DNA of 64,000 nt from Eledone cirrhosa (Eukaryota). The notes beneath the pieces were generated by a model. It searched no databases and was not told where the DNA came from. It saw only the letters and a list, made by a program, of their open reading frames with translations. Positions within the stretch are counted from its first letter, which is position 1. The number at the start of each line of letters is the position of its first letter. Shown piece by piece: positions 1-42,949 of this stretch. The position numbers were made by a program, and so were the translations under genes. The DNA lies in NCBI GenBank assembly GCA_964016885.1, contig OZ024755.1:43090001-43154000 (forward strand), written 5' to 3'.

Positions 1-2459
1 GAGGGTGCTGGGTGTGTAGGTGGTTATGGGCTGTGTGTGATGGTGTTGGGTCTGGAGGTGGTTATGTGCTGTGTGTGATGGTGAGGGTGCTGGGTGTGGA
101 GGTGGTTATGGGCTTTGTGTGATGGTGAGGGTGCTGGGTGTGGAGGTGGTTATGGGCTGTGTGTGATGGTGAGGGTGCTGGGTGTGAAGGTGGTTATGGG
201 CTGTGTGATGGTGAGGGTGTTGGGTGTGGAGGTGGTTATGTGCTGTGTGTGATGGTGGGGGTGTTGGGTGTGGAGATGGTTATGGGCTGTGTGTGATGGT
301 GAGGGTGTTGGGTGTGGAGGCGGTTATGGGCTGTGTGTGATGGTGAGGGTGGTGGGTGTGGAGGTGGTTATGGGCTGTGTGTGATGGTGAGGGTGGTGGG
401 TGTGGATGTGGTTATGGGCTGTGTGTGAAGGCAAGGATGTTGGGTGTGGAGATGGTTATGGGCTGTGTGTGATGGTGAGGGTGCTGGGTGTGGAGGTGGT
501 TATGTGCTGTGTGTTATGGTGAGGGTGTTGGGTGTGGAGGTGGTTATGTGCTGTGTGTGATGGTGAGGGTGCTGGGTGTGGAGGTGGTTATGGGCTGTGT
601 GTGATGGTGGGGGTGTTGGGTGTGGAGGTGGTTATGGGCTGTGTGTGATGGTGAGGGTGTTGGGTGTGGAGGTGGTTATGTGCTGTGTGTGATGGTGAGG
701 GTGTTGGGTGTGGAGATGGTTATGGGCTGTGTGTGATGGTGGGGGTGTTGGGTGTGGAGGTGGTTATGGGCTGTGTGTGATGGTGAGGGTGTTGGGTGTG
801 GAGGTGGTTATGTGCTGTGTGTGATGGTGAGGGTGTTGGGTGTGGAGGTGGTTATGGGCTGTGTGTGATGGTGGGGGTGTTGGGTGTGGAGGTGGTTATG
901 GGCTGTGTGTGATGGTGAGGGTGTTGGGTGTGGAGGTGGTTATGTGCTGTGTGTGATGGTGAGGGTGTTGGGTGTGGAGGTGGTTATGGGCTGTGTGTGA
1001 TGGTGTTGGGTGTGGAGGTGGTTATGTGCTGTGTGTGATGGTAAGGGTGTTGGGTGTGGAGGTGGTTATGGGCTGTGTGATGGTGTTGGGTGTGGAGGTG
1101 GTTATGTGCTGTGTGTGATGGTGAGGGTGCTGGGTGTGGAGGTGGTTATAGGCTGTGTGTGATGATAAGGGTGTTGGGTGTGGAGGTGGTTATGGGCTGT
1201 GTGTGATGGTGTTGGGTGTGGAGGTGGTTATGTGCTGTGTGTGATGGTGAGGGTGCTGGGTGTGGAGGTGGTTATGGGCTGTGTGTGATGGTGAGGGTGC
1301 TGGGTGTGGAGGTGGTTATGGGCTGTGTGTGATGGTGAGGGTGCTGTGTGTGGAGGTGATTATGGGCTGTGTGTGATGGTGAGGGTGCTTGGTGTGGAGG
1401 TGGTTATGGGCTGTGTGTGATGGTGGGGGTGTTGGGTGTGGAGGTGGTTATGGTCTGTGTGTGATGGTGAGGGTGCTGGGTGTGGAGGTGATTATGGGCT
1501 GTGTGTGATGGTGAGGGTGCTGGGTGTGGAGGTGGTTATGGGCTGTGTGTGATGGTGAGGATGTTGGGTGTGGAGGTGGTTATGTGCTGTGTGTGATGGT
1601 GAGGGTGTTGGGTGTGGAGGTGGTTATGGGTTGTGTGTGATGGTGAGGGTGTTGGGTGTGGAGGTGGTTATGGGCTGTGTGTGATGGTGAGGGTGGTGGG
1701 TGTGGAGGTGGTTATGGGCTGTGTGTGATGGTGAGGGTGCTGGGTGTGGTGATGTTTATGGGCTCTGTGTGATGGTGAGGGTGTTGGGTGTGGAGGTGGT
1801 TATGGGCTGTGTGTGATGGTGAGGGGGCTGGGTGTGGAGGTGGTTATGGGCTGTGTGTGATGGTGAGGGTGTTGGTGTGGAGGTGGTTATGGGCTGTGTG
1901 TGATGGTGAGGGTGCTGGGTATGGAGGTGGTTATGTGCTGTGTGTGATGGTGAGGGTGTTGGGTGTGGAGGTGGTTATGGGCTGTGTGTGATGGTGAGGG
2001 TGTGGGGTGTGGAGGTGGTTATGGGCTGTGTGTGATGGTGAGGGTGTTGGGTGCGGAGGTGGTTATGGGCTGTGTGTGATGGTGAGGGTGTTGGGTGTGG
2101 AGGTGGTTATGGGCTGTGTGTGATGGTGAGGGTGCTGGGTGTGGAGGTGGTTATGGGCTGTGTGTGATGGTGAGGGTGCTGGGTGTGGAGGTGGTTATGG
2201 GCTGTTTGTGATGGTGAGGGTGCTGGGTGTGGAGGTGGTTATGTGCTGTGTTTGATGGTGAGGGTGCTGGGTGTGGAGGTGGTTATGTGCTGTGTGTGAT
2301 GGTGAGAGTGCTGGGTGTGGAGGTGGTTATGGGCTGTGTGTGATGGTGAGGGTGTTGGGTGTGGAGGTGGTTATGGGCTGTGTGTGATGGTGAGGGTGCT
2401 GGGTGTGTAGGTGGTTATGGGCTGTGTGTGATGATAAGGGTGTTGGGTGTGGAGGTGGT

Positions 2460-3940
2460 TATGGGCTGTGTGTGATGGTGTTGGGTGTGGAGGTGGTTAT
2501 GTGCTGTGTGTGATGGTGAGGGTGCTGGGTGTGGAGGTGGTTATGGGCTGTGTGTGATGGTGAGGGTGCTGGGTGTGGAGGTGGTTATGGGCTGTGTGTG
2601 ATGGTGAGGGTGCTGTGTGTGGAGGTGATTATGGGCTGTGTGTGATGGTGAGGGTGCTGGGTGTGGAGGTGGTTATGGGCTGTGTGTGATGGTGAGGGTG
2701 TTGGGTGTGGAGGTGGTTATGGGCTGTGAGTGATGGTGAGGGTGTCGGGTGTGGAGGTGATTATGGGCTGTGTGTGATGGTGAGGGTGCTGGGTGTGGAG
2801 CTGGTTATGGGCTGTGTGTGATGGTGAGGGTGTTGGGTGTGGAGGTGGTTATGGGCTGTGTGTGATGGTGAGGGTGTTGGGTGTGGAGGTGGTTATGTGC
2901 TGTGTGTGATGGTGAGGGTGCTGGGTGTGGAGGTGGTTATGGGCTGTGTGTGATGGTGAGGGTGTTGGGTGTGGAGGTGGTTATGGGCTGTGTGTGATGG
3001 TGAGGGTGCTGGGTGTGGAGGTGGTTTTGGGCTGTGTGTGATGGTGAGGGTGCTGGGTGTGGAGGTGGTTATGGGCTGTGTGTGATGGTGAGGGTGCTGT
3101 GTGTGGAGGTGGTTATGGGCTGTGTGTGATGGTGAGGGTGCTGGGTGTGGAGGTGTTTATGGGCTGTGTGTGATGGTGAGGGTGTTGGGTGTGGCGGTGG
3201 TTATGGGCTGTGTGTGATGGTGTTGGGTGTGGAGGTGGTTATGTGCTGTGTGTGATGGTGAGGGTGCTGGGTGTGGAGGTGGTTATGGGCTGTGTGTGAT
3301 GGTGAGGGTGCTGGGTGTGGAGGTGGTTATGGGCTGTGTGTGATGGTGTGGGTGCTGTGTGTGGAGGTGATTATGGGCTGTGTGTGATGGTGAGGGTGCT
3401 GGGTGTGGAGGTGGTTATGGGCTGTGTGTGATGGTGAGGGTGTTGGGTGTGGAGGTGGTTATGGGCTGTGTGTGATGGTGAGGGTGTCGGGTGTGGAGGT
3501 GATTATGGGCTGTGTGTGATGGTGAGGGTGCTGGGTGTGGAGCTGGTTATGGGCTGTGTGTGATGGTGAGGGTGTTGGGTGTGGAGGTGGTTATGGGCTG
3601 TGTGTGATGGTGAGGGTGTTGGGTGTGGAGGTGGTTATGTGCTGTGTGTGATGGTGAGGGTGCTGGGTGTGGAGGTGGTTATGGGCTGTGTTTGATGGTG
3701 AGGGTGTTGGGTGTGGAGGTGGTTATGGGCTGTGTGTGATGGTGAGGGTGCTGGGTGTGGAGGTGGTTTTGGGCTGTGTGTGATGGTGAGGGTGCTGGGT
3801 GTGGAGGTGGTTATGGGCTGTGTGTGATGGTGAGGGTGCTGGGTGTGGAGGTGTTTATGGGCTGTGTGTGATGGTGAGGGTGTTGGGTGTGGCGGTGGTT
3901 ATGGGCTGTGTGTGATGGTGAGGGTGTTGGGTGTGGATGT
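2460..3940 (+). repeat. 742-bp tandem duplication (17 units) within the 44-bp array
   Basis: The GTGTCGGG variant has its TCGG at 2745 and 3487. GGAGCTGG and GGTTTTGG variants repeat with the same offset. 742 = 17x44 - 6. Boundaries are approximate. Confidence 0.8.
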
Positions 3941-6900
3941 GGTTATGTGCTGTGTGTGATGGTGAGGGTGCTGGGTGTGAAGGTGGTTATGGGCTGTGTG
4001 TGATGTTGAGGGTGCTGGGTGTGGAGGTGGTTATTTGCTGTGTGTGATGGTGAGGGTGGTGGGTGTGGAGGTGGTTATGGGCTGTGTGTGATGGTGAGGG
4101 TGTTGGGTGTGGAGGTGGTTATGGGCTGTGTGTGATGGTGAGGGTGTTGGGTGTGGAGGTGGTTATGGGCTGAGTGTGATGGTGAGGGTGTTGGGTGTGG
4201 AGGTTGTTATGGGCTGTGTGTGATGGTGAGGGTGCTGGGTGTGGAGGTGGTTATGGGCTGTGTGTGATGGTGAGGGTGCTGGGTGTGGAGGTGGTTATGG
4301 GCTGTGGGTGATGGTGAGGGTGCTGGGTGTGGAGGTGGTTATGGGCTGTGTGTGATGGTGTTGGGTGTGGAGGTGGTTATGGGCTCTGTGTGATGGTGAG
4401 GGTGTTGGGTGTGGTGGTGGTTATGGGCTGTGTGTGATGGTAAGGGTGTTGGATGTGGAGATGGTTATGGGCTGTGTGTGATGGTGAGGGTGCTGGGTGT
4501 GGAGGTGGTTATGTGCTGTGTGTGATGGTGAGGGTGCTGGGTGTGGAGGTGGTTATGGGCTGTGTGTGATGGTGCGGGTGTTGGGTGTGGAGGTGGTTAT
4601 GGGCTGTGTGTGATGGTGAGGGTGTTGGGTGTGGAGGTGGTTATGGGCTGTGTGTGATGGTGAGGGTGTTGGGTGTGGAGGTGATTATGGGCTGTGTGTG
4701 ATGGTGCGGGTGTTGGGTGTGTAGGTGGTTATGGGCTGTGTGTGATGGTGAGGGTGTTGGGTGTGGAGGTGGTTATGGGCTGTGTGTGATGGTGAGGGTG
4801 TTGGGCGTGGAGGTGGTTATGGGCTGTGTGTGATGGTAAGGGTGTTGGGTGTGGAGGTGGTTATGGGCTGTGTGTGATGGTGAGGGTGTTGGGTGTGGAG
4901 GTGGTTATGGGCTGTGTGTGATAGTGAGGGAGCTGGGTGTGGAGGTGGTTATGGGCTGTGTGTGATGGTGAGGGTGCTGGGTGTGTAGGTGGTTATGGGC
5001 TGTGTGTGATGGTGTTGGGTCTGGAGGTGGTTATGTGCTGTGTGTGATGGTGAGGGTGCTGGGTGTGGAGGTGGTTATGGGCTTTGTGTGATGGTGAGGG
5101 TGCTGGGTGTGGAGGTGGTTATGGGCTGTGTGTGATGGTGAGGGTGCTGGGTGTGAAGGTGGTTATGGGCTGTGTGATGGTGAGGGTGTTGGGTGTGGAG
5201 GTGGTTATGTGCTGTGTGTGATGGTGAGGGTGCTGGGTGTGGAGGTGGTTATGGGCTGTGTGTGATGGTGAGGGTGCTGGGTGTGGAGGTGGTTATGGGC
5301 TGTGTGTGATGGTGTTGGGTGTGGAGGTGGTTATGTGCTGTGTGTGATGGTGAGGGTGCTGGGTGTGGAGGTGGTTATGGGCTGTGTGTGATGGTGAGGG
5401 TGCTGGGTGTGGAGGTGGTTATGGGCTGTGTGTGATGGTGTGGGTGCTGTGTGTGGAGGTGATTATGGGCTGTGTGTGATGGTGAGGGTGCTGGGTGTGG
5501 AGGTGGTTATGGGCTGTGTGTGATGGTGAGGGTGTTGGGTGTGGAGGTGGTTATGGGCTGTGTGTGATGGTGAGGGTGTCGGGTGTGGAGGTGATTATGG
5601 GCTGTGTGTGATGGTGAGGGTGCTGGGTGTGGAGCTGGTTATGGGCTGTGTGTGATGGTGAGGGTGTTGGGTGTGGAGGTGGTTATGGGCTGTGTGTGAT
5701 GGTGAGGGTGTTGGGTGTGGAGGTGGTTATGTGCTGTGTGTGATGGTGAGGGTGCTGGGTGTGGAGGTGGTTATGGGCTGTGTTTGATGGTGAGGGTGTT
5801 GGGTGTGGAGGTGGTTATGGGCTGTGTGTGATGGTGAGGGTGCTGGGTGTGGAGGTGGTTTTGGGCTGTGTGTGATGGTGAGGGTGCTGGGTGTGGAGGT
5901 GGTTATGGGCTGTGTGTGATGGTGAGGGTGCTGGGTGTGGAGGTGTTTATGGGCTGTGTGTGATGGTGAGGGTGTTGGGTGTGGCGGTGGTTATGGGCTG
6001 TGTGTGATGGTGAGGGTGTTGGGTGTGGATGTGGTTATGTGCTGTGTGTGATGGTGAGGGTGCTGGGTGTGAAGGTGGTTATGGGCTGTGTGTGATGTTG
6101 AGGGTGCTGGGTGTGGAGGTGGTTATTTGCTGTGTGTGATGGTGAGGGTGGTGGGTGTGGAGGTGGTTATGGGCTGTGTGTGATGGTGAGGGTGTTGGGT
6201 GTGGAGGTGGTTATGGGCTGTGTGTGATGGTGAGGGTGTTGGGTGTGGAGGTGGTTATGGGCTGAGTGTGATGGTGAGGGTGTTGGGTGTGGAGGTTGTT
6301 ATGGGCTGTGTGTGATGGTGAGGGTGCTGGGTGTGGAGGTGGTTATGGGCTGTGTGTGATGGTGAGGGTGCTGGGTGTGGAGGTGGTTATGGGCTGTGGG
6401 TGATGGTGAGGGTGCTGGGTGTGGAGGTGGTTATGGGCTGTGTGTGATGGTGTTGGGTGTGGAGGTGGTTATGGGCTCTGTGTGATGGTGAGGGTGTTGG
6501 GTGTGGTGGTGGTTATGGGCTGTGTGTGATGGTAAGGGTGTTGGATGTGGAGATGGTTATGGGCTGTGTGTGATGGTGAGGGTGCTGGGTGTGGAGGTGG
6601 TTATGTGCTGTGTGTGATGGTGAGGGTGCTGGGTGTGGAGGTGGTTATGGGCTGTGTGTGATGGTGCGGGTGTTGGGTGTGGAGGTGGTTATGGGCTGTG
6701 TGTGATGGTGAGGGTGTTGGGTGTGGAGGTGGTTATGGGCTGTGTGTGATGGTGAGGGTGTTGGGTGTGGAGGTGATTATGGGCTGTGTGTGATGGTGCG
6801 GGTGTTGGGTGTGTAGGTGGTTATGGGCTGTGTGTGATGGTGAGGGTGTTGGGTGTGGAGGTGGTTATGGGCTGTGTGTGATGGTGAGGGTGTTGGGCGT

Positions 6901-7310
6901 GGAGGTGGTTATGGGCTGTGTGTGATGGTAAGGGTGTTGGGTGTGGAGGTGGTTATGGGCTGTGTGTGATGGTGAGGGTGTTGGGTGTGGAGGTGGTTAT
7001 GGGCTGTGTGTGATAGTGAGGGAGCTGGGTGTGGAGGTGGTTATGGGCTGTGTGTGATGGTGAGGGTGCTGGGTGTGTAGGTGGTTATGGGCTGTGTGTG
7101 ATGGTGTTGGGTCTGGAGGTGGTTATGTGCTGTGTGTGATGGTGAGGGTGCTGGGTGTGGAGGTGGTTATGGGCTTTGTGTGATGGTGAGGGTGCTGGGT
7201 GTGGAGGTGGTTATGGGCTGTGTGTGATGGTGAGGGTGCTGGGTGTGAAGGTGGTTATGGGCTGTGTGATGGTGAGGGTGTTGGGTGTGGAGGTGGTTAT
7301 GTGCTGTGTG
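3200..7310 (+). repeat. 2092-bp higher-order tandem duplication (48 units) within the 44-bp array
   Basis: Markers at a constant 2092-bp offset: TCGG 3487/5579, TTGGGCG 4801/6893, ATAGTG 4921/7013, GTAGG 4985/7077. 2092 = 48x44 - 3x6 - 2. Confidence 0.9.
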
Positions 7311-8911
7311 TGATGGTGGGGGTGTTGGGTGTGGAGATGGTTATGGGCTGTGTGTGATGGTGAGGGTGTTGGGTGTGGAGGCGGTTATGGGCTGTGTGTG
7401 ATGGTGAGGGTGGTGGGTGTGGAGGTGGTTATGGGCTGTGTGTGATGGTGAGGGTGGTGGGTGTGGATGTGGTTATGTGCTGTGTGTGAAGGCAAGGATG
7501 TTGGGTGTGGAGATGGTTATGGGCTGTGTGTGATGGTGATGGTGCTGGGTGTGGAGGTGGTTATGTGCTGTGTGTTATGGTGAGGGTGTTGGGTGTGGAG
7601 GTGGTTATGTGCTGTGTGTGATGGTGAGGGTGCTGGGTGTGGAGGTGGTTATGGGCTGTGTGTGATGGTGGGGGTGTTGGGTGTGGAGGTGGTTATGGGC
7701 TGTGTGTGATGGTGAGGGTGTTGGGTGTGGAGGTGGTTATGTGCTGTGTGTGATGGTGAGGGTGTTGGGTGTGGAGATGGTTATGGGCTGTGTGTGATGG
7801 TGGGGGTGTTGGGTGTGGAGGTGGTTATGGGCTGTGTGTGATGGTGAGGGTGTTGGGTGTGGAGGTGGTTATGTGCCGTGTGTGATGGTGAGGGTGTTGG
7901 GTGTGGAGGTGGTTATGTGCTGTGTGTGATGGTGAGGGTGTTGGGTGTGGAGGTGGTTATGGGCTGTGTGTGATGGTGTTGGGTGTGGAGGTGGTTATGT
8001 GCTGTGTGTGATGGTAAGGGTGTTGGGTGTGGAGGTGGTTATGGGCTGTGTGATGGTGTTGGGTGTGGAGGTGGTTATGTGCTGTGTGTGATGGTGAGGG
8101 TGCTGGGTGTGGAGGTGGTTATAGGCTGTGTGTGATGATAAGGGTGTTGGGTGTGGAGGTGGTTATGGGCTGTGTGTGATGGTGTTGGGTGTGGAGGTGG
8201 TTATGTGCTGTGTGTGATGGTGAGGGTGCTGGGTGTGGAGGTGGTTATGGGCTGTGTGTGATGGTGAGGGTGTCGGGTGTGGAGGTGATTATGGGCTGTG
8301 TGTGATGGTGAGGGTGCTGGGTGTGGAGCTGGTTATGGGCTGTGTGTGATGGTGAGGGTGTTGGGTGTGGAGGTGGTTATGGGCTGTGTGTGATGGTGAG
8401 GGTGTTGGGTGTGGAGGTGGTTATGTGCTGTGTGTGATGGTGAGGGTGCTGGGTGTGGAGGTGGTTATGGGCTGTGTGTGATGGTGAGGGTGTTGGGTGT
8501 GGAGGTGGTTATGGGCTGTGTGTGATGGTGAGGGTGCTGGGTGTGGAGGTGGTTATTTGCTGTGTGTGATGGTGAGGGTGGTGGGTGTGAAGGTGGTTAT
8601 GGTCTGTGTGTGATGGTGAGGGTGTTGGGTGTGGAGGTGGTTATGTGCTGTGTGTGATGGTGGGGGTGTTGGGTGTGGAGATGGTTATGGGCTGTGTGTG
8701 ATGGTGAGGGTGTTGGGTGTGGAGGTGGTTATGGGCTGTGTGTGATGGTGAGGGTGTTGGGTGTGGAGGTGGTTATGGGCTGTGTGTGATGGTGAGGGTG
8801 CTGGGTGTGGAGGTGGTTATGGGCTGTGTGTGATGGTGAGGGTGCTGGGTGTGGAGGTGGTTATGGGCTGTGGGTGATGGTGAGGGTGCTGGGTGTGGAG
8901 GTGGTTATGGG

Positions 8912-8940
8912 TTAGGGTTAGGGTTAGGGTTAGGGTTAGG
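8912..8940 (+). repeat. Short interstitial telomeric tract (TTAGGG)4TTAGG
   Basis: Perfect TTAGGG hexamers at 8912, 8918, 8924 and 8930, then TTAGG at 8936. TTAGGG is the canonical telomere repeat of vertebrates and many other eukaryotes. Confidence 0.93.
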
Positions 8941-9999
8941 CTTAGGATAGCTTAGCTTAGCTTAGCTTAGGATAGCTTAGCTTAGCTTAGCTTAGGATAG
9001 CTTAGCTTAGCTTAGCTTAGGATAGCTTAGCTTAGGATAGCTTAGCTTAGGATAGCTTAGCTTAGGTTAGCTTAGCTTAGCTTAGCTTAGGATAGCTTAG
9101 GATAGCTTAGCTTAGGATAGCTTAGCTTAGCTTAGCTTAGGATAGCTTAGGATAGCTTAGGATAGCTTAGCTTAGCTTAGCTTAGGATAGCTTAGCTTAG
9201 GATAGCTTAGCTTAGCTTAGGATAGCTTAGCTTAGCTTAGCTTAGGATAGCTTAGCTTAGGATAGCTTAGCTTAGGATAGCTTAGCTTAGGATAGCTTAG
9301 GATAGCTTAGCTTAGGATAGCTTAGGATAGCTTAGCTTAGGTAGCTTAGCTTAGCTTAGCTTAGGATAGCTTAGCTTAGCTTAGGATAGCTTAGCTTAGC
9401 TTAGCTTAGGATAGCTTAGCTTAGGATAGCTTAGGATAGCTTAGCTTAGCTTAGCTTAGGATAGCTTAGCATAGCTTAGGATAGCTTAGCTTAGCTTAGG
9501 ATAGCTTAGCTTAGGATAGCTTAGCTTAGCTTAGCTTAGGATAGCTTAGCTTAGCTTAGCTTAGGATAGCTTAGCTTAGCTTAGCTTAGGATAGCTTAGC
9601 TTAGCTTAGCTTAGGATAGCTTAGCTTAGCTTAGCTTAGGATAGCTTAGCTTAGCTTAGCTTAGCTTAGCTTAGCTTAGCTTAGCTTAGCTTAGCTTAGG
9701 ATAGCTTAGCTTAGCTTAGCTTAGGATAGCTTAGCTTAGCTTAGGAGAGCTTAGCTTAGCTTAGCTTAGGATAGCTTAGCTTAGCTTAGCTTAGGATAGC
9801 TTAGCTTAGCTTAGCTTAGGATAGCTTAGCTTAGCTTAGCTTAGGATAGCTTAGCTTAGCTTAGCTTAGGATAACTTAGCTTAGCTTAGCTTAGGATAGC
9901 TTAGCTTAGCTTAGCTTAGGATAGCTTAGCTTAGCTTAGCTTAGGATAGCTTAGCTTAGCTTAGCTTAGGATAGCTTAGGATAGCTTAGCTTAGGATAG

Positions 10000-12900
10000 C
10001 TTAGGATAGCTTAGCTTAGGATAGCTTAGGATAGCTTAGCTTAGGATAGCTTAGGATAGCTTAGCTTAGCTTAGCTTAGCTTAGCTTAGCTTAGCTTAGC
10101 TTAGCTTAGGATAGCTTAGGATAGCTTAGCTTAGGATAGCTTAGCTTAGGATAGCTTAGCTTAGGATAGCTTAGCTTAGGATAGCTTAGCTTAGGATAGC
10201 TTTGCTTAGGATAGCTTAGGATAGCTTAGCTTAGGATAGCTTAAGATAGCTTAGCTTAGGATAGCTTAGCTTAGGATAGCTTTGGATAGCTTAGCTTAGC
10301 TTAGCTTAGGATAGCTTAGTTTAGCTTAGCTTAGGATAGCTTAGCTTAGCTTAGGATAGCTTAGCTTAGCTTTGCTTAGGATAGCTTAGCTTAGGATAGC
10401 TTAGCTTAGCTTAGCTTAGGATAGCTTAGCTTAGCTTAGCTTAGGATAGCTTAGCTTAGCTTAGCTTAGGATAGCTTAGCTTAGCTTAGGATAGCTTAGC
10501 TTAGCTTAGGATAGCTTAGCTTAGCTTAGGATAGCTTAGCTTAGCTTAGCTTAGGATAGCTTAGCTTAGCTTTGCTTAGGATAGCTTAGCTTAGCTTAGC
10601 TTAGGATAGCTTAGCTTAGGTTAGCTTAGGATAGCTTAGCTTAGCTTAGGATAGCTTAGCTTAGCTTAGCTTAGGATAGCTTAGATTAGCTTAGCTTATG
10701 ATAGCTTAGCTTAGCTTAGGATAGCTTAGCTTAGCTTAGCTTAGGATAGCTTAGCTTAGCTTAGCTTAGGATAGCTTAGCTTAGCTTAGCTTAGGATAGC
10801 TTAGCTTAGCTTAGCTTAGGATAGCTTAGCTTAGCTTAGCTTAGGATAACTTAGCTTAGCTTAGCTTAGCTTAGGATAGCTTAGCTTAGGATAGCTTAGC
10901 TTAGCTTAGGATAGCTTAGCTTAGCTTAGCTTAGGATAGCTTAGCTTAGCTTAGCTTAGGATAGCTTAGCTTAGCTTAGCTTAGCTTAGCTTAGGATAGC
11001 TTAGCTTAGCTTAGCTTAGCTTAGCTTAGGATAGCTTAGCTTATGTTAGCTTAGCTTAGCTTAGCTTAGGATAGCTTAGGATAGCTTAGCTTAGGATAGT
11101 TTAGCTTAGCTTAGCTTAGGATAGCTTAGCTTAGCTTAGCTTAGGATAGCTTAGCTTAGGATAGCTTAGCTTAGGATAGCTTAGGATAGCTTAGCTTAGG
11201 ATAGCTTAGCTTAGGATAGCTTAGGATAGCTTAGCTTAGGATAGCTTAGGATAGCTTAGCTTAGCTTAGCTTAGGATAGCTTAGCTTAGCTTAGCTTAGG
11301 ATAGTTTAGCTTAGCTTAGCTTAGGATAGCTTAGCTTAGCTTAGCTTAGGATAGCTTAGCTTAGCTTAGGATAGCTTAGCTTAGCTTAGCTTAGGATAGC
11401 TTAGCTTAGCTTAGCTTAGGATAGCTTAGCTTAGCTTAGCTTAGGATAGCTTAGCTTAGCTTAGCTTAGGATAGCTTAGCTTAGCTTAGCTTAGGATAGC
11501 TTAGCTTAGCTTAGGATAGCTTAGCTTAGCTTAGCTTAGGATAGCTTAGCTTAGCTTAGGATAGCTTAGCTTAGCTTAGGAGAGCTTAGCTTAGCTTAGG
11601 AGAGCTTAGCTTAGCTTAGCTTAGGATAGCTTAGCTTAGCTTAGGAGAGCTTAGCTTAGCTTAGCTTAGGATAGCTTAGCTTAGCTTAGCTTAGGATAGC
11701 TTAGCTTAGCTTAGCTTAGGATAGCTTAGCTTAGCTTAGCTTAGGATAGCTTAGCTTAGCTTAGCTTAGGATAGCTTAGGATAGCTTACCTTAGGAGAGC
11801 TTAGCTTAGGATAGCTTAGCTTAGGATAGTTTAGGATAGCTTAGCTTAGGATAGCTTAGCTTAGAATAGCTTAGCTTAGGATAGCTTAGGATAGCTTAGC
11901 TTAGGATATCTTAGCTTAGCTTAGCTTAGGATAGCTTAGCTTAGCTTAGCTTAGGATAGCTTAGGATAGCTTAGCTTAGGATAGCTTAGGATAGCTTAGC
12001 TTAGGATAGCTTAGCTTAGGATAGCTTAGGATAGCTTAGCTTAGCTTAGCTTAGGATAGCTTAGCTTAGCTTAGCTTTGGATAGCTTAGCTTAGCTTAGC
12101 TTTGAATAGCTTAGCTTAGCTTAGCTTAGGATAGCTTAGGATAGCTTAGCTTAGGATAGCTTAGGATAGTTTAGCTTAGGATAGCTTAGGATAGCTTAGC
12201 TTAGGATAGCTTAGGATAGCTTAGCTTAGGAATAGCTTAGCTTAGGAGAGCTTAGCTTAGCTTAGCTTAGGATAGCTTAGCTTGGGATAGCTTAGCTTAG
12301 GATAGCTTAGCTTAGGATAGCTTAGCTTAGGATAGCTTAGGATAGCTTAGCTTAGCTTAGCTTAGGCTAGCTTAGCTTAGCTTAGCCTAGGATAGCTTAG
12401 CTTAGCTTACGATAGCTTAGCTTAGCTTAGCTTAGGATAGCTTAGCTTAGCTTAGGATAGCTTAGCTTAGCTTTGCTTAGGATAGCTTAGCTTAGCTTAG
12501 CTTAGGATAGCTTAGCTTAGCTTAGCTTAGGATAGCTTAGCTTAGGATAGCTTAGCTTAGGATAGCTTAGCTTAGGATAGCTTAGCTTAGGATAGCTTAG
12601 GATAGCTTAGCTTAGGATAGCTTAGCTTAGCTTAGCTTAGGATAGCTTAGCTTAGGATAGCTTAGCTTAGGATAGCTTAGCTTAGCTTAGCTTAGGTTAG
12701 CTTAGCTTAGCTTAGCTTAGGATAGCTTAGCTTAGCTTAGCTTAGCTTAGCTTAGCTTAGGATAGCTTAGCTTAGCTTAACTTAGGATAGCTTAGCTTAG
12801 CTTAGCTTAGGATAGCTTAGCTTAGCTTAGCTTAGGATAGCTTAGCTTAGCTTAGCTTAGGATAGCTTAGCTTAGCTTAGCTTAGCTTAGGATAGCTTAG

Positions 12901-15900
12901 CTTAGATTAGCTTAGGATAGCTTAGCTTAGCTTAGCTTAGGATAACTTAGCTTAGCTTAGCTTAGGATAGCTTAGCTTAGCTTAGCTTAGGATAGCTTAG
13001 CTTAGCTTAGCTTAGGATAGCTTAGCTTAGCTTAGCTTAGGATAGCTTAGGATAGCTTAGCTTAGGATAGCTTAGGATAGCTTAGCTTAGGATAGCTTAG
13101 GATAGCTTAGCTTAGGATAGCTTAGGATAGCTTAGCTTAGGATAGCTTAGCTTAGGATAGCTTAGGATAGCTTAGCTTAGCTTAGCTTAGGATAGCTTAG
13201 CTTAGCTTAGCTTAGGATAGCTTAGCTTAGCTTAGCTTAGGATAGCTTAGCTTAGCTTAGCTTAGGATAGCTTAGCTTAGCTTAGCTTAGGATAGCTTAG
13301 CTTAGGATAGCTTAGCTTAGGATAGCTTAGGATAGCTTAGCTTAGGATAGCTTAGCTTAGGATAGCTTAGCTTAGGATAGCTTAGGATAGCTTAGCTTAG
13401 GATAGCTTAAGATAGCTTAGCTTAGGATAGCTTAGCTTAGCTTAGGATAGCTTAGTTTAGCTTAGCTTAGGATAGCTTAGCTTAGCTTAGGATAGCTTAG
13501 CTTAGCTTAGGATAGCTTAGCTTAGCTATGCTTAGGATAGCTTAGCTTAGCTTAGCTTAGGATAGCTTAGCTTAGCTTAGCTTAGGATAGCTTAGCTTAG
13601 CTTAGCTTAGGATAGCTTAGCTTAGCTTAGCTTAGGGTAGCTTAGCTTAGCTTAGGATAGCTTAGCTTAGCTTAGGATAGCTTAGCTTAGCTTAGGATAG
13701 CTTAGCTTAGCTTAGCTTAGGATAGCTTAGCTTAGCTTTGCTTAGGATAGCTTAGCTTAGCTTAGCTTAGGATAGCTTAGCTTAGGTTAGCTTAGGATAG
13801 CTTAGCTTAGCTTAGCTTAGGATAGCTTAGCTTAGCTTAGCTTAGGATAGCTTAGCTTAGCTTAGCTTAGGATAGCTTAGATTAGCTTAGCTTAGGATAG
13901 CTTAGCTTAGCTTAGGATAGCTTAGCTTAGCTTAGCTTAGGATAGCTTAGCTTAGCTTAGCTTAGGATAGCTTAGCTTAGCTTAGCTTAGGATAGCTTAG
14001 CTTAGCTTAGCTTAGGATAGCTTAGCTTAGCTTAGCTTAGGATAGCTTAGCTTAGCTTAGCTTAGGATAGCTTAGCTTAGGATAGCTTAGGATAGCTTAG
14101 CTTAGGATAGCTTAGGATAGCTTAGCTTAGGATAGCTTAGGATAGCTTAGCTTAGGATAGCTTAGGATAGCTTAGCTTAGCTTAGCTTAGCTTAGCTTAG
14201 CTTAGCTTAGCTTAGGATAGCTTAGCTTAGGATAGCTTAGGATAGCTTAGCTTAGGATAGCTTAGCTTAGGATAGCTTAGCTTAGGATAGCTTAGCTTAG
14301 GATAGCTTTGCTTAGGATAGCTTAGGATAGCTTAGCTTAGGATAGCTTAAGATAGCTTAGCTTAGGATAGCTTAGCTTAGGATAGCTTTGGATAGCTTAG
14401 CTTAGCTTAGCTTAGGATAGCTTAGTTTAGCTTAGCTTAGGATAGCTTAGCTTAGCTTAGGATAGCTTAGCTTAGCTTTGCTTAGGATAGCTTAGCTTAG
14501 GATAGCTTAGCTTAGCTTAGCTTAGGATAGCTTAGCTTAGCTTAGCTTAGGATAGCTTAGCTTAGCTTAGCTTAGGATAGCTTAGCTTAGCTTAGGATAG
14601 CTTAGCTTAGCTTAGGATAGCTTAGCTTAGCTTAGCTTAGGATAGCTTAGCTTAGCTTTGCTTAGGATAGCTTAGCTTAGCTTAGCTTAGGATAGCTTAG
14701 CTTAGGTTAGCTTAGGATAGCTTAGCTTAGCTTAGGATAGCTTAGCTTAGCTTAGCTTAGGATAGCTTAGATTAGCTTAGCTTATGATAGCTTAGCTTAG
14801 CTTAGGATAGCTTAGCTTAGCTTAGCTTAGGATAGCTTAGCTTAGCTTAGCTTAGGATAGCTTAGCTTAGCTTAGCTTAGGATAGCTTAGCTTAGCTTAG
14901 CTTAGGATAGCTTAGCTTAGCTTAGCTTAGGATAACTTAGCTTAGCTTAGCTTAGCTTAGGATAGCTTAGCTTAGGATAGCTTAGCTTAGCTTAGGATAG
15001 CTTAGCTTAGCTTAGCTTAGGATAGCTTAGCTTAGGATAGCTTAGGATAGCTTAGCTTAGCTTAGCTTAGGATAGCTTAGCTTAGCTTAGCTTAGGATAG
15101 CTTAGCTTAGCTTAGCTTAGCTTAGCTTAGGATAGCTTAGCTTAGCTTAGCTTAGCTTAGCTTAGGATAGCTTAGCTTAGCTTAGCTTAGAATAGCTTAG
15201 CTTAGCTTAGCTTAGGATAGCTTAGCTTAGCTTGGCTTAGGATAGCTTAGCTTAGCTTAGCTTAGGATAGCTTAGCTTAGGATAGCTTAGCTTAGGATAG
15301 CTTAGCTTATGTTAGCTTAGCTTAGCTTAGGATAGCTTAGCTTATGTTAGCTTAGCTTAGCTTAGCTTAGGATAGCTTAGGATAGCTTAGCTTAGGATAG
15401 TTTAGCTTAGCTTAGCTTAGGATAGCTTAGCTTAGCTTAGCTTAGGATAGCTTAGCTTAGGATAGCTTAGCTTAGGATAGCTTAGGATAGCTTAGCTTAG
15501 GATAGCTTAGCTTAGGATAGCTTAGCTTAGGATAGCTTAGCTTAGGATAGCTTAGGATAGCTTAGCTTAGCTTAGCTTAGGATAGCTTAGCTTAGCTTAG
15601 CTTAGGATAGCTTAGCTTAGCTTAGCTTAGGATAGCTTAGCTTAGCTTAGCTTAGGATAGCTTAGCTTAGCTTAGCTTAGGATAGCTTAGCTTAGCTTAG
15701 CTTAGGATAGCTTAGCTTAGCTTAGCTTAGGATAGCTTAGCTTAGCTTAGCTTAGGATAGCTTAGCTTAGCTTAGCTTAGGATAGCTTAGCTTAGCTTAG
15801 GATAGCTTAGCTTAGCTTAGCTTAGGATAGCTTAGCTTAGCTTAGGATAGCTTAGCTTAGCTTAGGAGAGCTTAGCTTAGCTTAGGAGAGCTTAGCTTAG

Positions 15901-18350
15901 CTTAGCTTAGGATAGCTTAGCTTAGCTTAGCTTAGGATAGCTTAGCTTAGCTTAGCTTAGGATAGCTTAGCTTAGCTTAGCTTAGGATAGCTTAGCTTAG
16001 CTTAGCTTAGGATAGCTTAGCTTAGCTTAGCTTAGGATAGCTTAGGATAGCTTACCTTAGGAGAGCTTAGCTTAGGATAGCTTAGCTTAGGATAGTTTAG
16101 GATAGCTTAGCTTAGGATAGCTTAGCTTAGAATAGCTTAGCTTAGGATAGCTTAGGATAGCTTAGCTTAGGATATCTTAGCTTAGCTTAGCTTAGGATAG
16201 CTTAGCTTAGCTTAGCTTAGGATAGCTTAGGATAGCTTAGCTTAGGATAGCTTAGGATAGCTTAGCTTAGGATAGCTTAGCTTAGGATAGCTTAGGATAG
16301 CTTAGCTTAGCTTAGCTTAGGATAGCTTAGCTTAGCTTAGCTTTGGATAGCTTAGCTTAGCTTAGCTTTGAATAGCTTAGCTTAGCTTAGCTTAGGATAG
16401 CTTAGGATAGCTTAGCTTAGGATAGCTTAGGATAGTTTAGCTTAGGATAGCTTAGGATAGCTTAGCTTAGGATAGCTTAGGATAGCTTAGCTTAGGAATA
16501 GCTTAGCTTAGGAGAGCTTAGCTTAGCTTAGCTTAGGATAGCTTAGCTTGGGATAGCTTAGCTTAGGATAGCTTAGCTTAGGATAGCTTAGCTTAGGATA
16601 GCTTAGGATAGCTTAGCTTAGCTTAGCTTAGGCTAGCTTAGCTTAGCTTAGCCTAGGATAGCTTAGCTTAGCTTACGATAGCTTAGCTTAGCTTAGCTTA
16701 GGATAGCTTAGCTTAGCTTAGGATAGCTTAGCTTAGCTTTGCTTAGGATAGCTTAGCTTAGCTTAGCTTAGGATAGCTTAGCTTAGCTTAGCTTAGGATA
16801 GCTTAGCTTAGGATAGCTTAGCTTAGGATAGCTTAGCTTAGGATAGCTTAGCTTAGGATAGCTTAGGATAGCTTAGCTTAGGATAGCTTAGCTTAGCTTA
16901 GCTTAGGATAGCTTAGCTTAGGATAGCTTAGCTTAGGATAGCTTAGCTTAGCTTAGCTTAGGTTAGCTTAGCTTAGCTTAGCTTAGGATAGCTTAGCTTA
17001 GCTTAGCTTAGGATAGCTTAGCTTAGCTTAGCTTAGGATAGCTTAGCTTAGCTTAACTTAGGATAGCTTAGCTTAGCTTAGCTTAGGATAGCTTAGCTTA
17101 GCTTAGCTTAGGATAGCTTAGCTTAGCTTAGCTTAGGATAGCTTAGCTTAGCTTAGCTTAGCTTAGGATAGCTTAGCTTAGATTAGCTTAGGATAGCTTA
17201 GCTTAGCTTAGCTTAGGATAACTTAGCTTAGCTTAGCTTAGGATAGCTTAGCTTAGCTTAGCTTAGGATAGCTTAGCTTAGCTTAGCTTAGGATAGCTTA
17301 GCTTAGCTTAGCTTAGGATAGCTTAGGATAGCTTAGCTTAGGATAGCTTAGGATAGCTTAGCTTAGGATAGCTTAGGATAGCTTAGCTTAGGATAGCTTA
17401 GGATAGCTTAGCTTAGGATAGCTTAGCTTAGGATAGCTTAGGATAGCTTAGCTTAGCTTAGCTTAGGATAGCTTAGCTTAGCTTAGCTTAGGATAGCTTA
17501 GCTTAGCTTAGCTTAGGATAGCTTAGCTTAGCTTAGCTTAGGATAGCTTAGCTTAGCTTAGCTTAGGATAGCTTAGCTTAGGATAGCTTAGCTTAGGATA
17601 GCTTAGGATAGCTTAGCTTAGGATAGCTTAGCTTAGGATAGCTTAGCTTAGGATAGCTTAGGATAGCTTAGCTTAGGATAGCTTAAGATAGCTTAGCTTA
17701 GGATAGCTTAGCTTAGGATAGCTTAGGATAGCTTAGCTTAGCTTAGGATAGCTTAGTTTAGCTTAGCTTAGGATAGCTTAGCTTAGCTTAGGATAGCTTA
17801 GCTTAGCTTAGGATAGCTTAGCTTAGCTTTGCTTAGGATAGCTTAGCTTAGCTTAGCTTAGGATAGCTTAGCTTAGCTTAGCTTAGGATAGCTTAGCTTA
17901 GCTTAGCTTAGGATAGCTTAGCTTAGCTTAGCTTAGGGTAGCTTAGCTTAGCTTAGGATAGCTTAGCTTAGCTTAGGATAGCTTAGCTTAGCTTAGGATA
18001 GCTTAGCTTAGCTTAGCTTAGGATAGCTTAGCTTAGCTTTGCTTAGGATAGCTTAGCTTAGCTTAGCTTAGGATAGCTTAGCTTAGGTTAGCTTAGGATA
18101 GCTTAGCTTAGCTTAGCTTAGGATAGCTTAGCTTAGCTTAGCTTAGGATAGCTTAGCTTAGCTTAGCTTAGGATAGCTTAGATTAGCTTAGCTTAGGATA
18201 GCTTAGCTTAGCTTAGGATAGCTTAGCTTAGCTTAGCTTAGGATAGCTTAGCTTAGCTTAGCTTAGGATAGCTTAGCTTAGCTTAGCTTAGGATAGCTTA
18301 GCTTAGCTTAGCTTAGGATAGCTTAGCTTAGCTTAGCTCAGGATAGCTTA
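10000..18350 (+). repeat. ~4.1-4.3-kb higher-order duplication in the pentamer array (2 copies)
   Basis: CTTACC 11785/16051, GATATC 11905/16171 and the +1 insertion (G)AATAG 12231/16497 all have offset 4266. TTTG 10201/14307 has offset 4106, and CTTAGGGTAG 13631/17932 has offset 4301. Confidence 0.85.
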
Positions 18351-21249
18351 GCTTAGCTTAGCTTAGGATAGCTTAGCTTAGCTTAGCTTAGGATAACTTA
18401 GCTTAGCTTAGCTTAGCTTAGGATAGCTTAGCTTAGCTTAGCTTAGGATAGCTTAGCTTAGCTTAGCTTAGGATAGCTTAGCTTAGCTTAGCTTAGCTTA
18501 GGATAGCTTAGCTTAGCTTAGCTTAGGATAGCTTAGCTTAGCTTAGCTTAGCTTAGGATAGCTTAGCTTAGCTTAGCTTAGGATAGCTTAGCTTAGCTTA
18601 GCTTAGCTTAGCTTAGGATAGCTTAGCTTAGCTTAGCTTAGGATAGCTTAGCTTAGCTTAGCTTAGGATAGCTTAGCTTAGATTGGCTTAGGATAGCTTA
18701 GCTTAGCTTAGCTTAGCTTAGCTTAGGATAGCTTAGGATAGCTTAGCTTAGGATAGCTTAGGATAGCTTATCTTAGGATAGCTTAGCTTAGGATAGCTTA
18801 GCATAGCTTAGCTTAGGATAGCTTAGGATAGCTTAGCTTAGGATAGCTTAGCTTAGGATAGCTTAGGATAGCTTAGCTTAGCTTAGCTTTGGATAGCTTA
18901 GCTTAGCTTAGCTTAGGATAGCTTAGCTTAGCTTAGCTTAGGATAGCTTAGGATAGCTTAGCTTAGGATAGCTTAGGATAGCTTAGCTTAGGTAGCTTAG
19001 GATAGCTTAGCTTAGGATAGCTTAGGATAGCTTAGCTTAGGATAGCTTAGGATAGCTTAGCTTAGGATAGCTTAGCTTAGGATAGCTTAGCTTAGCTTAG
19101 CATAGGATAGCTTAGCTTAGCTTAGCTTAGGATAGCTTAGCTTAGCTTAGCTTAGGATAGCTTAGCTTAGGATAGCTTAGCTTAGGATAGCTTAGGATAG
19201 CTTAGCTTAGGATAGCTTAGGATAGCTTAGCTTAGGATAGCTTAGGATAGCTTAGCTTAGGATAGCTTAGCTTAGGATAGCTTAGGATAGCTTAGCTTAG
19301 GATAGCTTAGCTTAGGATAGCTTAGGATAGCTTAGCTTAGCTTAGGATAGCTTAGTTTAGCTTAGCTTAGGATAGCTTAGCTTAGCTTAGGATAGCTTAG
19401 CTTAGCTTAGGATAGCTTAGCTTAGCTTTGCTTAGGATAGCTTAGCTTAGCTTAGCTTAGGATAGCTTAGCTTAGCTTAGCTTAGGATAGCTTAGCTTAG
19501 CTTAGGATAGCTTAGCTTAGCTTAGGATAGCTTAGCTTAGCTTAGGATAGCTTAGCTTAGCTTAGCTTAGGATAGCTTAGCTTAGCTTTGCTTAGGATAG
19601 CTTAGCTTAGGTTAGCTTAGGATAGCTTAGCTTAGGATAGCTTAGCTTAGCTTAGCTTAGGATAGCTTAGCTTAGCTTAGCTTAGGATAGCTTAGATTAG
19701 CTTAGCTTAGGATAGCTTAACTTAGCTTAGCTTAGGATAGCTTAGCTTAGCTTAGCTTAGGATAGCTTAGCTTAGCTTAGCTTAGGATAACTTAGCTTAG
19801 CTTAGCTTAGCTTAGGATAGCTTAGCTTAGGATAGCTTAGCTTAGCTTAGCTTAGGATAGCTTAGCTTAGCTTAGCTTAGGATAGCTTAGCTTAGCTTAG
19901 CTTAGGATAGCTTAGCTTAGCTTAGCTTAGCTTAGGATAGCTTAGCTTAGCTTAGCTTAGGATAGCTTAGCTTAGCTTAGCTTAGCTTAGCTTAGCTTAG
20001 GATAGCTTAGCTTAGCTTAGCTTAGGATAGCTTAGCTTAGCTTAGCTTAGGATAGCTTAGCTTAGCTTGGCTTAGGATAGCTTAGCTTAGCTTAGCTTAG
20101 GATAGCTTAGGATAGCTTAGCTTAGGATAGCTTAGGATAGCTTATCTTAGGATAGCTTAGCTTAGGATAGCTTAGGATAGCTTAGCTTAGGATAGCTTAG
20201 GATAGCTTAGCTTAGGATAGCTTAGCTTAGGATAGCTTAGGATAGCTTAGCTTAGCTTAGCTTTGGATAGCTTAGCTTAGCTTAGCTTTGGATAGCTTAG
20301 CTTAGCTTAGCTTTGGATAGCTTAGCTTAGCTTAGCTTTGGAAAGCTTAGCTTAGCTTAGCTTAGGATAGCTTAGCTTAGCTTAGCTTAGGATAGCTTAG
20401 GATAGCTTAGCTTAGGATAGCTTAGGATAGCTTAGCTTAGGATAGCTTAGCTTAGGATAGCTTAGCTTAGCTTAGCTTAGGATAGCTTAGCTTGGGATAG
20501 CTTAGGATAGCTTAGCTTAGGATAGCTTAGCTTAGGATAGCTTAGCTTAGGATAGCTTAGGATAGCTTAGCTTAGCTTAGCTTAGGATAGCTTAGCTTAG
20601 CTTAGCTTAGGATAGCTTAGCTTAGCTTAGGATAGCTTAGCTTAGCTTGGCTTAGGATAGCTTAGCTTAGCTTAGCTTAGGATAGCTTAGGATAGCTTAG
20701 CTTAGGATAGCTTAGGATAGCTTATCTTAGGATAGCTTAGCTTAGGATAGCTTAGCTTAGGATAGCTTAGCTTAGGATAGCTTAGGATAGCTTAGCTTAG
20801 GATAGCTTAGCTTAGGATAGCTTAGGATAGCTTAGCTTAGCTTAGCTTTGGATAGCTTAGCTTAGCTTAGCTTAGGATAGCTTAGGATAGCTTAGGATAG
20901 CTTAGCTTAGGATAGCTTAGGATAGCTTAGCTTAGGATAGCTTAGGATAGCTTAGCTTAGGATAGCATAGCTTAGGATAGCTTAGCTTAGCTTAGCTTAG
21001 GATAGCTTAGCTTGGGATAGCTTAGGATAGCTTAGCTTAGGATAGCTTAGCTTAGGATAGCTTAGCTTAGGATAGCTTAGGATAGCTTAGGATAGCTTAG
21101 CTTAGGATAGCTTAGCTTAGCTTAGCTTAGGATAGCTTAGCTTAGCTTAGGATAGCTTAGCTTAGCTTAGCTTAGGATAGCTTAGCTTAGCTTAGCTTAG
21201 GTAGCTTAGCTTAGCTTAGCTTAGGATAGCTTAGCTTAGCTTAGCTTAG

Positions 21250-24200
21250 GATATCTTAGGTTAGCTTAGGATAGCTTAGCTTAGCTTAGCTTAGGATAGC
21301 TTAGCTTAGGATAGCTTAGCTTAGGATAGCTTAGGATAGCTTAGCTTAGGATAGCTTAGGATAGCTTAGCTTAGGATAGCTTAGCTTAGCTTAGGATAGC
21401 TTAGCTTAGCTTAGGATAGCTTAGCTTAGCTTAGCTTAGGATAGCTTAGCTTAGGATAGCTTAGGATAGCTTAGCTTAGCTTAGCTTAGGATAGCTTAGC
21501 ATAGCTTAGGATAGCTTAGCTTAGCTTAGGATAGCTTAGCTTAGCTTAGGATAGCTTAGGATAGCTTAGCTTAGGATAGCTTAGCTTAGCTTAGGATAGC
21601 TTAGCTTAGCTTAGCTTAGGATAGCTTAGCTTAGCTTAGCTTAGGATAGCTTAGCTTAGCTTAGCTTAGGATAGCTTAGCTTAGCTTAGCTTAGGATAGC
21701 TTAGCTTAGCTTAGGATAGCTTAGCTTAGGATAGCTTAGCTTAGCTTAGGATAGCTTAGCTTAGCTTAGCTTAGGATAGCTTAGCTTAGCTTAGGAGAGC
21801 TTAGCTTAGCTCAGCTTAGGATAGCTTAGCTTAGCTTGGCTTAGGATAGCTTAGCTTAGCTTAGCTTAGGATAGCTTAGCTTGGCTTAGCTTAGGATAGC
21901 TTAGCTTAGATTAGCTTAGGATAGCTTAGCTTAGCTTAGCTTAGGATAGCTTAGCTTACTTTAGGATAGCTTAGCTTAGCTTAGCTTAGGATAGCTTAGC
22001 TTAGCTTGGCTTAGGATAGCTTAGCTTAGCTTAGCTTAGGATAGCTTAGCTTTGGATAGCTTAGCTTAGGATAGCTTAGCTTAGGATAGCTTAGGATAGC
22101 TTAGCTTAGGATAGCTTAGGATAGCTTAGCTTAGGATAGCTTAGGATAGCTTAGCTTAGGATAGCTTAGCTTAGGATAGCTTAGCTTAGCTTAGCTTAGG
22201 ATAGCTTAGCCTAGCTTAGCTTAGGATAGCTTAGGATAGCTTAGCTTAGGATAGCTTAGGATAGCTTAGCTTAGGATAGCTTAGCTTAGGATAGCTTAGC
22301 TTAGGATAGCTTAGCTTAGGATAGCTTAGCTTAGCTTAGGTTAGCTTAGCTTAGGATAGCTTACGATAGCTTAGCTTAGGATAGCTTAGCTTAGGATAGC
22401 TTAGGATAGCTTAGCTTAGCTTAGCTTAGGATAGCTTAGCTTAGCTTAGCTAAGGATAGCTTAGCTTAGCTTAGGATAGCTTAGCTTAGCTTAGCTTAGG
22501 ATAGCTTAGCTTAGCTTAGCTTAGGATAGCTTAGCTTAGCTTAGCTTAGGATAGCTTAGCTTAGCTTAGGATAGCTTAGCTTAGCTTAGCTTAGGATAGC
22601 TTAGGATAGCTTAGCTTAGCTTAGCTTAGGATAGCTTAGCTTAGCTTAGGATAGCTTAGCTTAGCTTGGCTTAGGATAGCTTAGCTTAGCTTGGCTTAGG
22701 ATAGCTTAGCTTAGCTTAGGATAGCTTAGCTTAGCTTAGCTTAGGATAGCTTAGCTTAGCTTAGCTTAGGATAGCTTAGCTTAGCTTAGCTTAGGATAGC
22801 TTAGCTTAGCTTAGGATAGCTTAGCTTAGCTTAGCTTACGATAGCTTAGCTTAGCTTAGCTTAGGATAGCTTAGCTTAGCTTAGCATAGCTTAGCTTAGC
22901 TTAGCTTAGGAGAGCTTAGCTTAGCTTAGCTTAGGATAGCTTAGCTTAGCTTAGCTTAGGATAGCTTAGCTTAGCTTAGCTAAGGATAGCTTAGCTTAGC
23001 TTAGCTTAGGATAGCTTAGCTTAGCTTAGCTTAGGATAGCTTAGGATAGCTTAGGATAGCTTACCTTAGGAGAGCTTAGCTTAGGATAGCTTAGCTTAGG
23101 ATAGCTTAGGATAGCTTAGCTTAGGATAGCTTAGGATAGCTTAGCTTAGCTTAGCTTAGGTTAGCTTAGCTTAGCTTAGCTTAGGATAGCTTAGCTTAGC
23201 TTAGCTTAGGATAGCTTAGCTTATGATAGCTTAGGATAGCTTAGCTTAGCTTAGCTTAGGTTAGCTTAGCTTAGCTTAGCTTAGGTTAGCTTAGCTTAGC
23301 TTAGCTTAGGATAGCTTAGCTTAGCTTAGCTTAGGATAGCTTAGCTTAGCTTAGCTTAGGATAGCTTAGCTTAGCTTAACTTAGGATAGCTTAGCTTAGC
23401 TTAGCTTAGGATAGCTTAGCTTAGCTTAGCTTAGGATAGCTTAGCTTAGCTTAGCTTAGGATAGCTTAGCTTAGCTTAGCTTAGGATAGCTTAGCTTAGC
23501 TTAGCTTAGGATAGCTTAGCTTAGCTTAGCTTAGGATAGCTTAGCTTAGCTTAGCTTAGGATAGCTTAGGATAGCTTAGCTTAGGATAGCTTAGGATAGC
23601 TTAGCTTAGGATAGCTTAGGATAGCTTAGCTTAGGATAGCTTAGCTTAGGATAGCTTAGGATAGCTTAGCTTAGCTTAGCTTAGGATAGCTTAGCTTAGC
23701 TTAGCTTAGGATAGCTTAGCTTAGGATAGCTTAGCTTAGCTTAGCTTAGGATAGCTTAGCTTAGCTTAGGATAGCTTAGCTTAGGATAGCTTAGCTTAGG
23801 ATAGCTTAGGATAGCTTAGCTTAGGATAGCTTAGGATAGCTTAGCTTAGGATAGCTTAGCTTAGGATAGCATAGCTTAGGATAGCTTAGGATAGCTTAGC
23901 TTAGGATAGCTTAAGATAGCTTAGCTTAGGATAGCTTAGCTTAGGATAGCTTAGGATAGCTTAGCTTAGCTTAGGATAGCTTAGTTTAGCTTAGCTTAGG
24001 ATAGCTTAGCTTAGCTTAGCTTAGGATAGCTTAGATTAGCTTAGCTTAGGATAGCTTAGCTTAGCTTAGGATAGCTTAGCTTAGCTTAGCTTAGGATAGC
24101 TTAGCTTAGCTTAGCTTAGGATAGCTTAGCTTAGCTTAGCTTAGGATAGCTTAGCTTAGCTTAGCTTAGGATAGCTTAGCTTAGCTTAGCTTAGGATAGC

Positions 24201-29100: not shown

Positions 29101-29329
29101 TTAGGATAGCTTAGGATAGCTTAGCTTAGGATAGCTTAGCTTAGGATAGCTTAGCTTAGGATAGCTTAGGATAGCTTAGCTTAGCTTAGGATAGCTTAGC
29201 TTAGCTTAGCTTAGGATAGCTTAGGATAGCTTAGCTTGGGATAGCTTAGCTTAGAATAGCTTAGCTTAGCTTAGCTTAGGATAGCTTAGCTTGGGATAGC
29301 TTAGGATAGCTTAGGATAGCTTAGCTTAG

Positions 29330-42800: not shown

Positions 42801-42949
42801 GATAGCTTAGCTTAGCTTAGGATAGCTTAGGATAGCTTAGCTTAGGAGAGCTTAGCTTAGCTTAGCTTAGGATAGCTTAGCTTAACTTAGCTTAGGAGAG
42901 CTTAGCTTAGCTTAGCTTAGGATAGCTTAGCTTAGCTTAGCTTAGGATA

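Follow-up and report, generated by a model that had tools for sequence, protein, structure and literature searches.

A short telomeric tract at the seam between two unrelated satellites of Eledone cirrhosa: an apparent scar of a known kind

Introduction

How two satellites without common sequence become neighbours, and what a few telomeric repeats between them record, is the question raised by one seam in the genome of Eledone cirrhosa. The seam lies in a stretch of 64,000 nt, analysed as a whole and called the window here, in which a 44-bp minisatellite gives way to TTAGGG repeats and these to a satellite of 5-bp units. The original prediction read it as the fossil of a de novo telomere addition, with a minisatellite break seeded by telomerase and then joined to, or extended into, the 5-mer array. 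This core idea was found plausible and over-specified. The seam appears to be real and cleanly resolved, and would be a well-defined case of a scar type already known.

Results

Layout of the window and telomeric tract

The window was composed of tandem repeats only, with unique sequence absent (TRF, 64,000 nt; Table 1), and had no Rfam matches. The two satellites were unrelated, as predicted, with no 7-mer common to the minisatellite and the 5-mer satellite on either strand.

Table 1. Features at and around the seam, in window positions
Feature	Position	Strand	Description
44-bp G-rich minisatellite	1..8911	+	TRF period 44, 204.7 copies; 205 monomers parsed; continues past the left edge
Sister monomer, array continuing uninterrupted	4302..4345	+	duplicated at 6394-6437
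Last monomer, rare position-6 G variant	8868..8911	+	variant in 3/205 monomers, the others at 4302 and 6394
Telomere-like seed GGTTATGGG	8903..8911	+	identical 9-mer closes 139/205 monomers; GGG 8909-8911 common to the tract
Telomeric tract (TTAGGG)4-TTAGG	8912..8940	+	0 mismatches, 0 variant repeats
Right seam TTAG-G-CTTAG	8940..8941	+	tract and 5-mer array share at most 1 nt (G)
Mosaic CTTAG/GATAG 5-mer satellite	8941..64000	+	11,001 units parsed; ~55 kb; continues past the right edge

The presence of a telomeric tract between the satellites was confirmed. The 44-mer ended at 8911 and was followed by the four full TTAGGG repeats that had been described (8912-8935) and by a fifth, partial repeat, TTAGG (8936-8940), that had been overlooked. 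The tract comprised 29 bp without mismatch and was internal, with other DNA extending at least 8.9 kb to its left and 55 kb to its right.

The maximal stretch in telomere register was 32 nt long (8909-8940) vs. 7 nt for the longest one outside the tract (window, either strand), and the tract is therefore foreign to both arrays. In Markov simulations of both arrays (30 each at orders 2 and 4, 60 in total), the longest register run was 11 nt at order 2 and 7 nt at order 4. The tract cannot have originated by chance from either array. Nine TTAGGG hexamers were found in the window, in tandem only at 8912-8940, and the remaining five of the nine were single GATAG>GGTAG substitutions. There were no variant hexamers inside the tract and no register runs longer than 7 nt elsewhere in the window; in this window, then, short TTAGGG runs were not common variants of the CTTAG array, so that the second outcome named as refuting the original prediction was not seen here. 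The probability of a tract without mismatch at array-level divergence was P = 0.49-0.72, and the purity of the tract thus gives no date for the event. The tract is now most likely functionless.

Parts of window positions 8300-9400 were present in 20 of 24 listed public sequencing runs; the best runs (X15-X17; one sample, one study) had 0.54-0.58 of 65 words from this segment, and a nearly complete word set was present in none of the 24. All that these shares indicate is the presence of some portions of the repeats in public runs; they are uninformative on the seam. The left seam motif had no matches in metagenome contigs, and a 28-base stretch of the minisatellite had none in metagenome, viral and prokaryote genome contigs. 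Motif searches of open-access papers gave no name for either satellite, and both may be described elsewhere. Two literature matches to CTTAG were discarded, one being an adapter (PMC12615707) and the other the flank of a fungal template (PMC10767889).

Left seam and minisatellite

The minisatellite had a GC skew of about +0.87, with its G strand oriented toward the tract, and a moderate G-quadruplex potential (G4Hunter mean 1.05; 30% of 25-nt windows ≥ 1.2). The 44-mer contained telomere-like words (TGAGGG and GGTTATGGG), and one strand of each unit had three G-triplets; the minisatellite may be subtelomeric, or derived from telomere sequence.

GTTATGGG continued as minisatellite at 140 of its 141 sites and as TTAGGG at one, and the other 204 monomers were devoid of TTAGGG. 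The monomers at 4302 and 6394 were identical to the last monomer, and the array ran on past them. The sister copies that had been adduced do exist, but they count as a single witness, since both lie within one exact duplication of 2031 bp. Upstream of both, rarer variants were also shared with the terminal stretch, but not monomer for monomer.

The duplication (3196-5226 and 5288-7318, offset 2092) either arose in tandem very recently or was introduced by the assembly. The run of monomers at 3950-4345 had a reshuffled paralog in the last ten monomers of the minisatellite (8428-8911), two of which, at 8516 and 8560, were unique in the window.

Satellite-satellite joins are weak points of assemblies, and the window has an exact 2031-bp duplication; both points would speak for a false assembly join or a chimeric long read. 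Such an artefact is nevertheless improbable as the source of the seam: the window had no N bases, the multi-kb higher-order repeats resolved in it would presumably have required overlaps far longer than 32 nt, and a chimera would imply a cut inside the first 29 bases of a telomere.

The minisatellite was abrupt and undecayed near the seam, with one mismatch in its last five monomers vs. about 0.95 per monomer (P = 0.05). No junction-specific base changes were found beside the seam, the sole variant being common to the sister monomers. As GGG was common to the 44-mer and the tract, the left breakpoint could be placed at any of four positions, from after 8908 to after 8911. The claim that the break was located to the base therefore failed, and the notion of a stop in mid-unit is meaningless in a tandem array.

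The in-register match at the left seam was 3 nt (GGG), for which the chance probability in this G-rich monomer was P = 0.125, with at least 3 shared nt in 33 of 264 random joins of monomer position and telomere phase. The corresponding figure used for ordinary DNA is 1.6% (PMC2246262, excerpt). Since 12.5% of random joins give three in-register bases, the in-register GGG is weak support for telomerase. Allowing one bulged T, the match was 8 nt and the longest among the 44 possible monomer ends, a score picked post hoc, after the site had been seen. By template-duplex energy, the left-seam end ranked third of 44 and two other ends paired better, as computed with RNA parameters and an 11-nt template deduced from the tract sequence, with the layout of vertebrate telomerase. 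The designation of this end as the best seed in the monomer was accordingly dropped as a firm claim; it is a good telomerase seed, not a unique one. The proposal of seeding at GGG thus kept its register and the capacity of GGG to pair with the template, and lost force to the chance level and the energy rank.

The 8-nt bulged match would suit strand invasion no less than pairing with a telomerase template. A broken minisatellite could have invaded existing TTAGGG through the similarity of GGTTA-GGG and copied or captured the tract without telomerase, from a telomere, a fragment or a prebuilt TTAGGG-CTTAG donor. About half of the minisatellite-telomere junctions in yeast were assigned to copying (PMC3486850, excerpt), and the recurrent 25-38-bp tracts among muntjac satellites have been proposed as recombination hubs (PMC8617201, excerpt). 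This route is rather unlikely here, with junction-specific base changes lacking beside the seam, where the lone variant is that of the sisters, and with the TTAGGG-CTTAG seam occurring just once in the 55-kb array. Since junctions in yeast arise also by copying from telomeres, the left seam does not tell which enzyme acted.

Right seam and 5-mer satellite

The 5-mer array opened with CTTAG GATAG from 8941. Within it, TTAGG occurred at 2,763 sites; the next base was A at 2,719 of them and C at 2. The seam reads TTAGG and then C, so that a 5-nt homology on offer about 2,700 times was unused. Random joins gave 0 or 1 shared base in 81% of cases, and the right seam shared at most one G. The unused 5-nt homology together with no more than 1 nt shared favours end-joining over an extension into the array. 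Joining to the CTTAG array, the first of the two outcomes left open by the original prediction, was thus favoured; the second, extension, was disfavoured by the homology of at most 1 nt and by the lack of a telomere-ward variant gradient. A later loss of four bases at the right seam could also have left TTAGG-C; no 4-base losses were seen among 10,846 forward 5-mer units.

The edge of the 5-mer array at the seam was abrupt and undecayed, with variants at 2 of its first 101 units vs. 5.2% overall (P = 0.10). The telomere-like variant GTTAG was not enriched (57, vs. 65 for ATTAG and 54 for TTTAG) and showed no gradient from the seam, with one GTTAG in the first 201 units. Blocks followed the grammar GATAG(CTTAG)n, with peaks at n of 4, 2 and 1, and higher-order duplications occurred at offsets of 1 to 17 kb.

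A local origin would make the tract a slippage product of GGTTATGGG or a GTTAG variant, or else derive the CTTAG array from a telomere by gradual change or template switch; it would account for TTA on the same strand in all three sequences. The rarity of doubled GATAG (2 of 2,842) and the block grammar are also what a stuttering template could give. Such an origin is very unlikely given the absence of TTAGGG from every monomer but the last, the GTTAG counts without enrichment or seam gradient, the scarcity of single-base insertions (2 of 10,846 units), block lengths far from geometric, and the multi-kb duplications and inversion, which are marks of recombination.

Paralogs of 9261-9760 were located at 21.3 and 25.2 kb (scores 19.5-19.8 vs. 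10.1-12.6 in 6 shuffles). For the first 320 bp of the 5-mer array, distinguishable paralogs were not found. Sister copies consequently did not serve to place the right breakpoint, the 120-nt exact matches being of low information and paralogs being available only for 9261-9760.

The 5-mer satellite also contained an inverted block of about 830 bp (29330-30161). Both of its ends were palindromes centred on AGCT, with arms of 8 and 5 nt; AGCT is supplied by every CTTAG-CTTAG step. The block did not mirror its flanks and had its own duplications of 149 and 339 bp, which carried a marker absent in forward orientation. From about 43000 to 61400 the satellite formed a young, homogeneous domain with a higher-order unit of about 1 kb, marked by CTTCG, ATTAG and CATAG variants, and with exact matches of up to 1.4 kb. 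The seam-proximal part had a 4.3-kb higher-order unit instead.

Discussion

Origin of the seam

The anatomy of the locus, the register, the abrupt edges and the near-blunt right seam are directly seen. The explanation preferred for them, with moderate confidence, is a telomerase patch followed by end-joining, as in short interstitial telomeric sequences (ITS). A break in the minisatellite would have exposed GGG, telomerase would have added about 28 bases to that end, and end-joining would then have linked the extended end to a cut 5-mer array, ahead of the formation of any lasting telomere; the break, the enzyme and the joining pathway are the parts that we infer. The event may have been a translocation or, if the two arrays were already neighbours on one chromosome, a deletion that took away their older boundary; the window fits both. 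The patch model is consistent with a paralogous copy of the array that continues past the break point, with the lack of a variant-repeat zone at the tract, and with a tract readable as ending at TTAG, which is expected by chance in about 1 in 3 cases. TTAG is the end point of a telomerase round. The length of about five repeats and the 1-nt G homology match the fusion of an eroded telomere too.

An eroded real telomere fits the data nearly as well as the telomerase patch. The tract would then be the stump of a working telomere: the 44-mer was subtelomeric, its telomere eroded or was broken to five repeats, and the end fused head-to-tail with the 5-mer satellite, either as a muntjac-type tandem fusion or by acquiring a satellite cap. 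The minisatellite has its G strand toward the tract, as at chromosome ends, and such minisatellites are termed subtelomeric (PMC3486850, excerpt). Fused short human telomeres average 5.8 repeats and 1.7 nt of homology (PMC2847243, excerpt), and muntjac fusion sites have one-direction TTAGGG adjoining satellite I (PMC2760882, excerpt). On the other side, variant repeats were lacking between the minisatellite and the tract, human fusions beyond the variant zone were just 29 of 201 (PMC2847243, excerpt), and the main muntjac fusion tracts were 168-837 bp long (PMC2760882, excerpt). A telomere stump is, on this evidence, a serious and still somewhat unlikely origin.

As the fusion of an eroded telomere fits nearly as well, the polarity of the tract is no proof of a former chromosome end. 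The use of polarity in the original prediction to place that end toward higher coordinates was unsupported; polarity shows solely which broken end was extended. A chromosome end in transition is a far-fetched further reading, whether as a newly seeded TTAGGG telomere with a grafted CTTAG/GATAG array as its present terminal cap or as the fossil of a motif switch, in which the five old repeats would be proximal and the TTAG-containing 5-mer array their distal, recombination-amplified successor.

Should reads confirm it, the seam would document at base level how unrelated satellite blocks come to adjoin each other: through a break and end-joining with a telomeric patch, rather than through the decay of one satellite into another. 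It is rare for seams within pure satellite DNA to be resolved, and the present case is a tidy example. The mechanism is already established, and one seam alters no model.

Comparison with known systems

Three classes were set aside. A head-to-head telomere fusion of the human 2q13 type was excluded, with no TTAGGG-then-CCCTAA and no CCCTAA in the window. A subtelomeric ITS or variant-repeat zone was rejected for want of degenerate units mixed with TTAGGG, and a telomere-derived CTTAG array for want of an excess of telomere-like variants and of a gradient from the tract.

Large satellites that touch telomeric repeats, as here, are described in excerpts on ape subterminal satellite caps (PMC12058530), on alpha-satellite at ALT telomeres (PMC13468120) and on a tapir satellite, which telomeric arrays flank or lie within (PMC13650154). 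Unlike at the present locus, no base-level seam of this kind is described in those excerpts. Cancer genomes contain neotelomeres, telomere-spanning fusions and insertions of 3-7 repeats (bioRxiv 10.1101/2023.11.30.569101, excerpt). Human short-telomere fusions (PMC2847243) and telomere-spanning fusions (bioRxiv 10.1101/2023.11.30.569101) resemble the seam in having about 5 repeats and about 1 nt of homology; according to the excerpts, they are somatic and mostly lie within variant repeats, whereas the repeats here are pure and fixed in the assembly.

In yeast, the G-rich human minisatellites CEB1 and CEB25 were healed by G-strand telomere addition at short homologies (PMC3486850, excerpt). The likeness lies in a G-rich repeat (39-52 bp in those minisatellites), a G strand pointing toward the new telomere and a junction at a short telomere homology. 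The yeast cases, as excerpted, are experimental, involve the yeast telomere and give a terminal product, whereas the seam here is internal and natural.

Muntjac tandem fusions have one-direction TTAGGG directly against satellite, with main blocks of 168-837 bp (PMC2760882, excerpt), and muntjac satellites I and IV contain truncated tracts of about 25-38 bp in reads (PMC8617201, excerpt). One-direction TTAGGG directly against a large satellite was likewise found here. According to the same excerpts, tracts at muntjac fusions are mostly of the longer class, and the short ones are recurrent and palindrome-flanked, unlike the present tract; judged by the descriptions in those excerpts, the satellites here are unrelated to the cervid ones.

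Most primate ITS are shorter than 50 bp, 33-40% have at least 3 nt in register, and deletion of the flanks is the commonest accompanying change (PMC2246262 and PMC7215372, excerpts). Classical cases are proven, in those excerpts, by an empty orthologous locus and have flanks from one place, whereas here two different satellites meet. The seam resembles a short ITS and is a candidate member of that class: its TTAGGG run is internal, conserved and short (29 bp), it is likewise below 50 bp, unmutated and in one direction, and the seam is compatible with a flanking deletion; the in-register match on its left side is 3 nt, an ambiguous sign given the chance level in this G-rich monomer.
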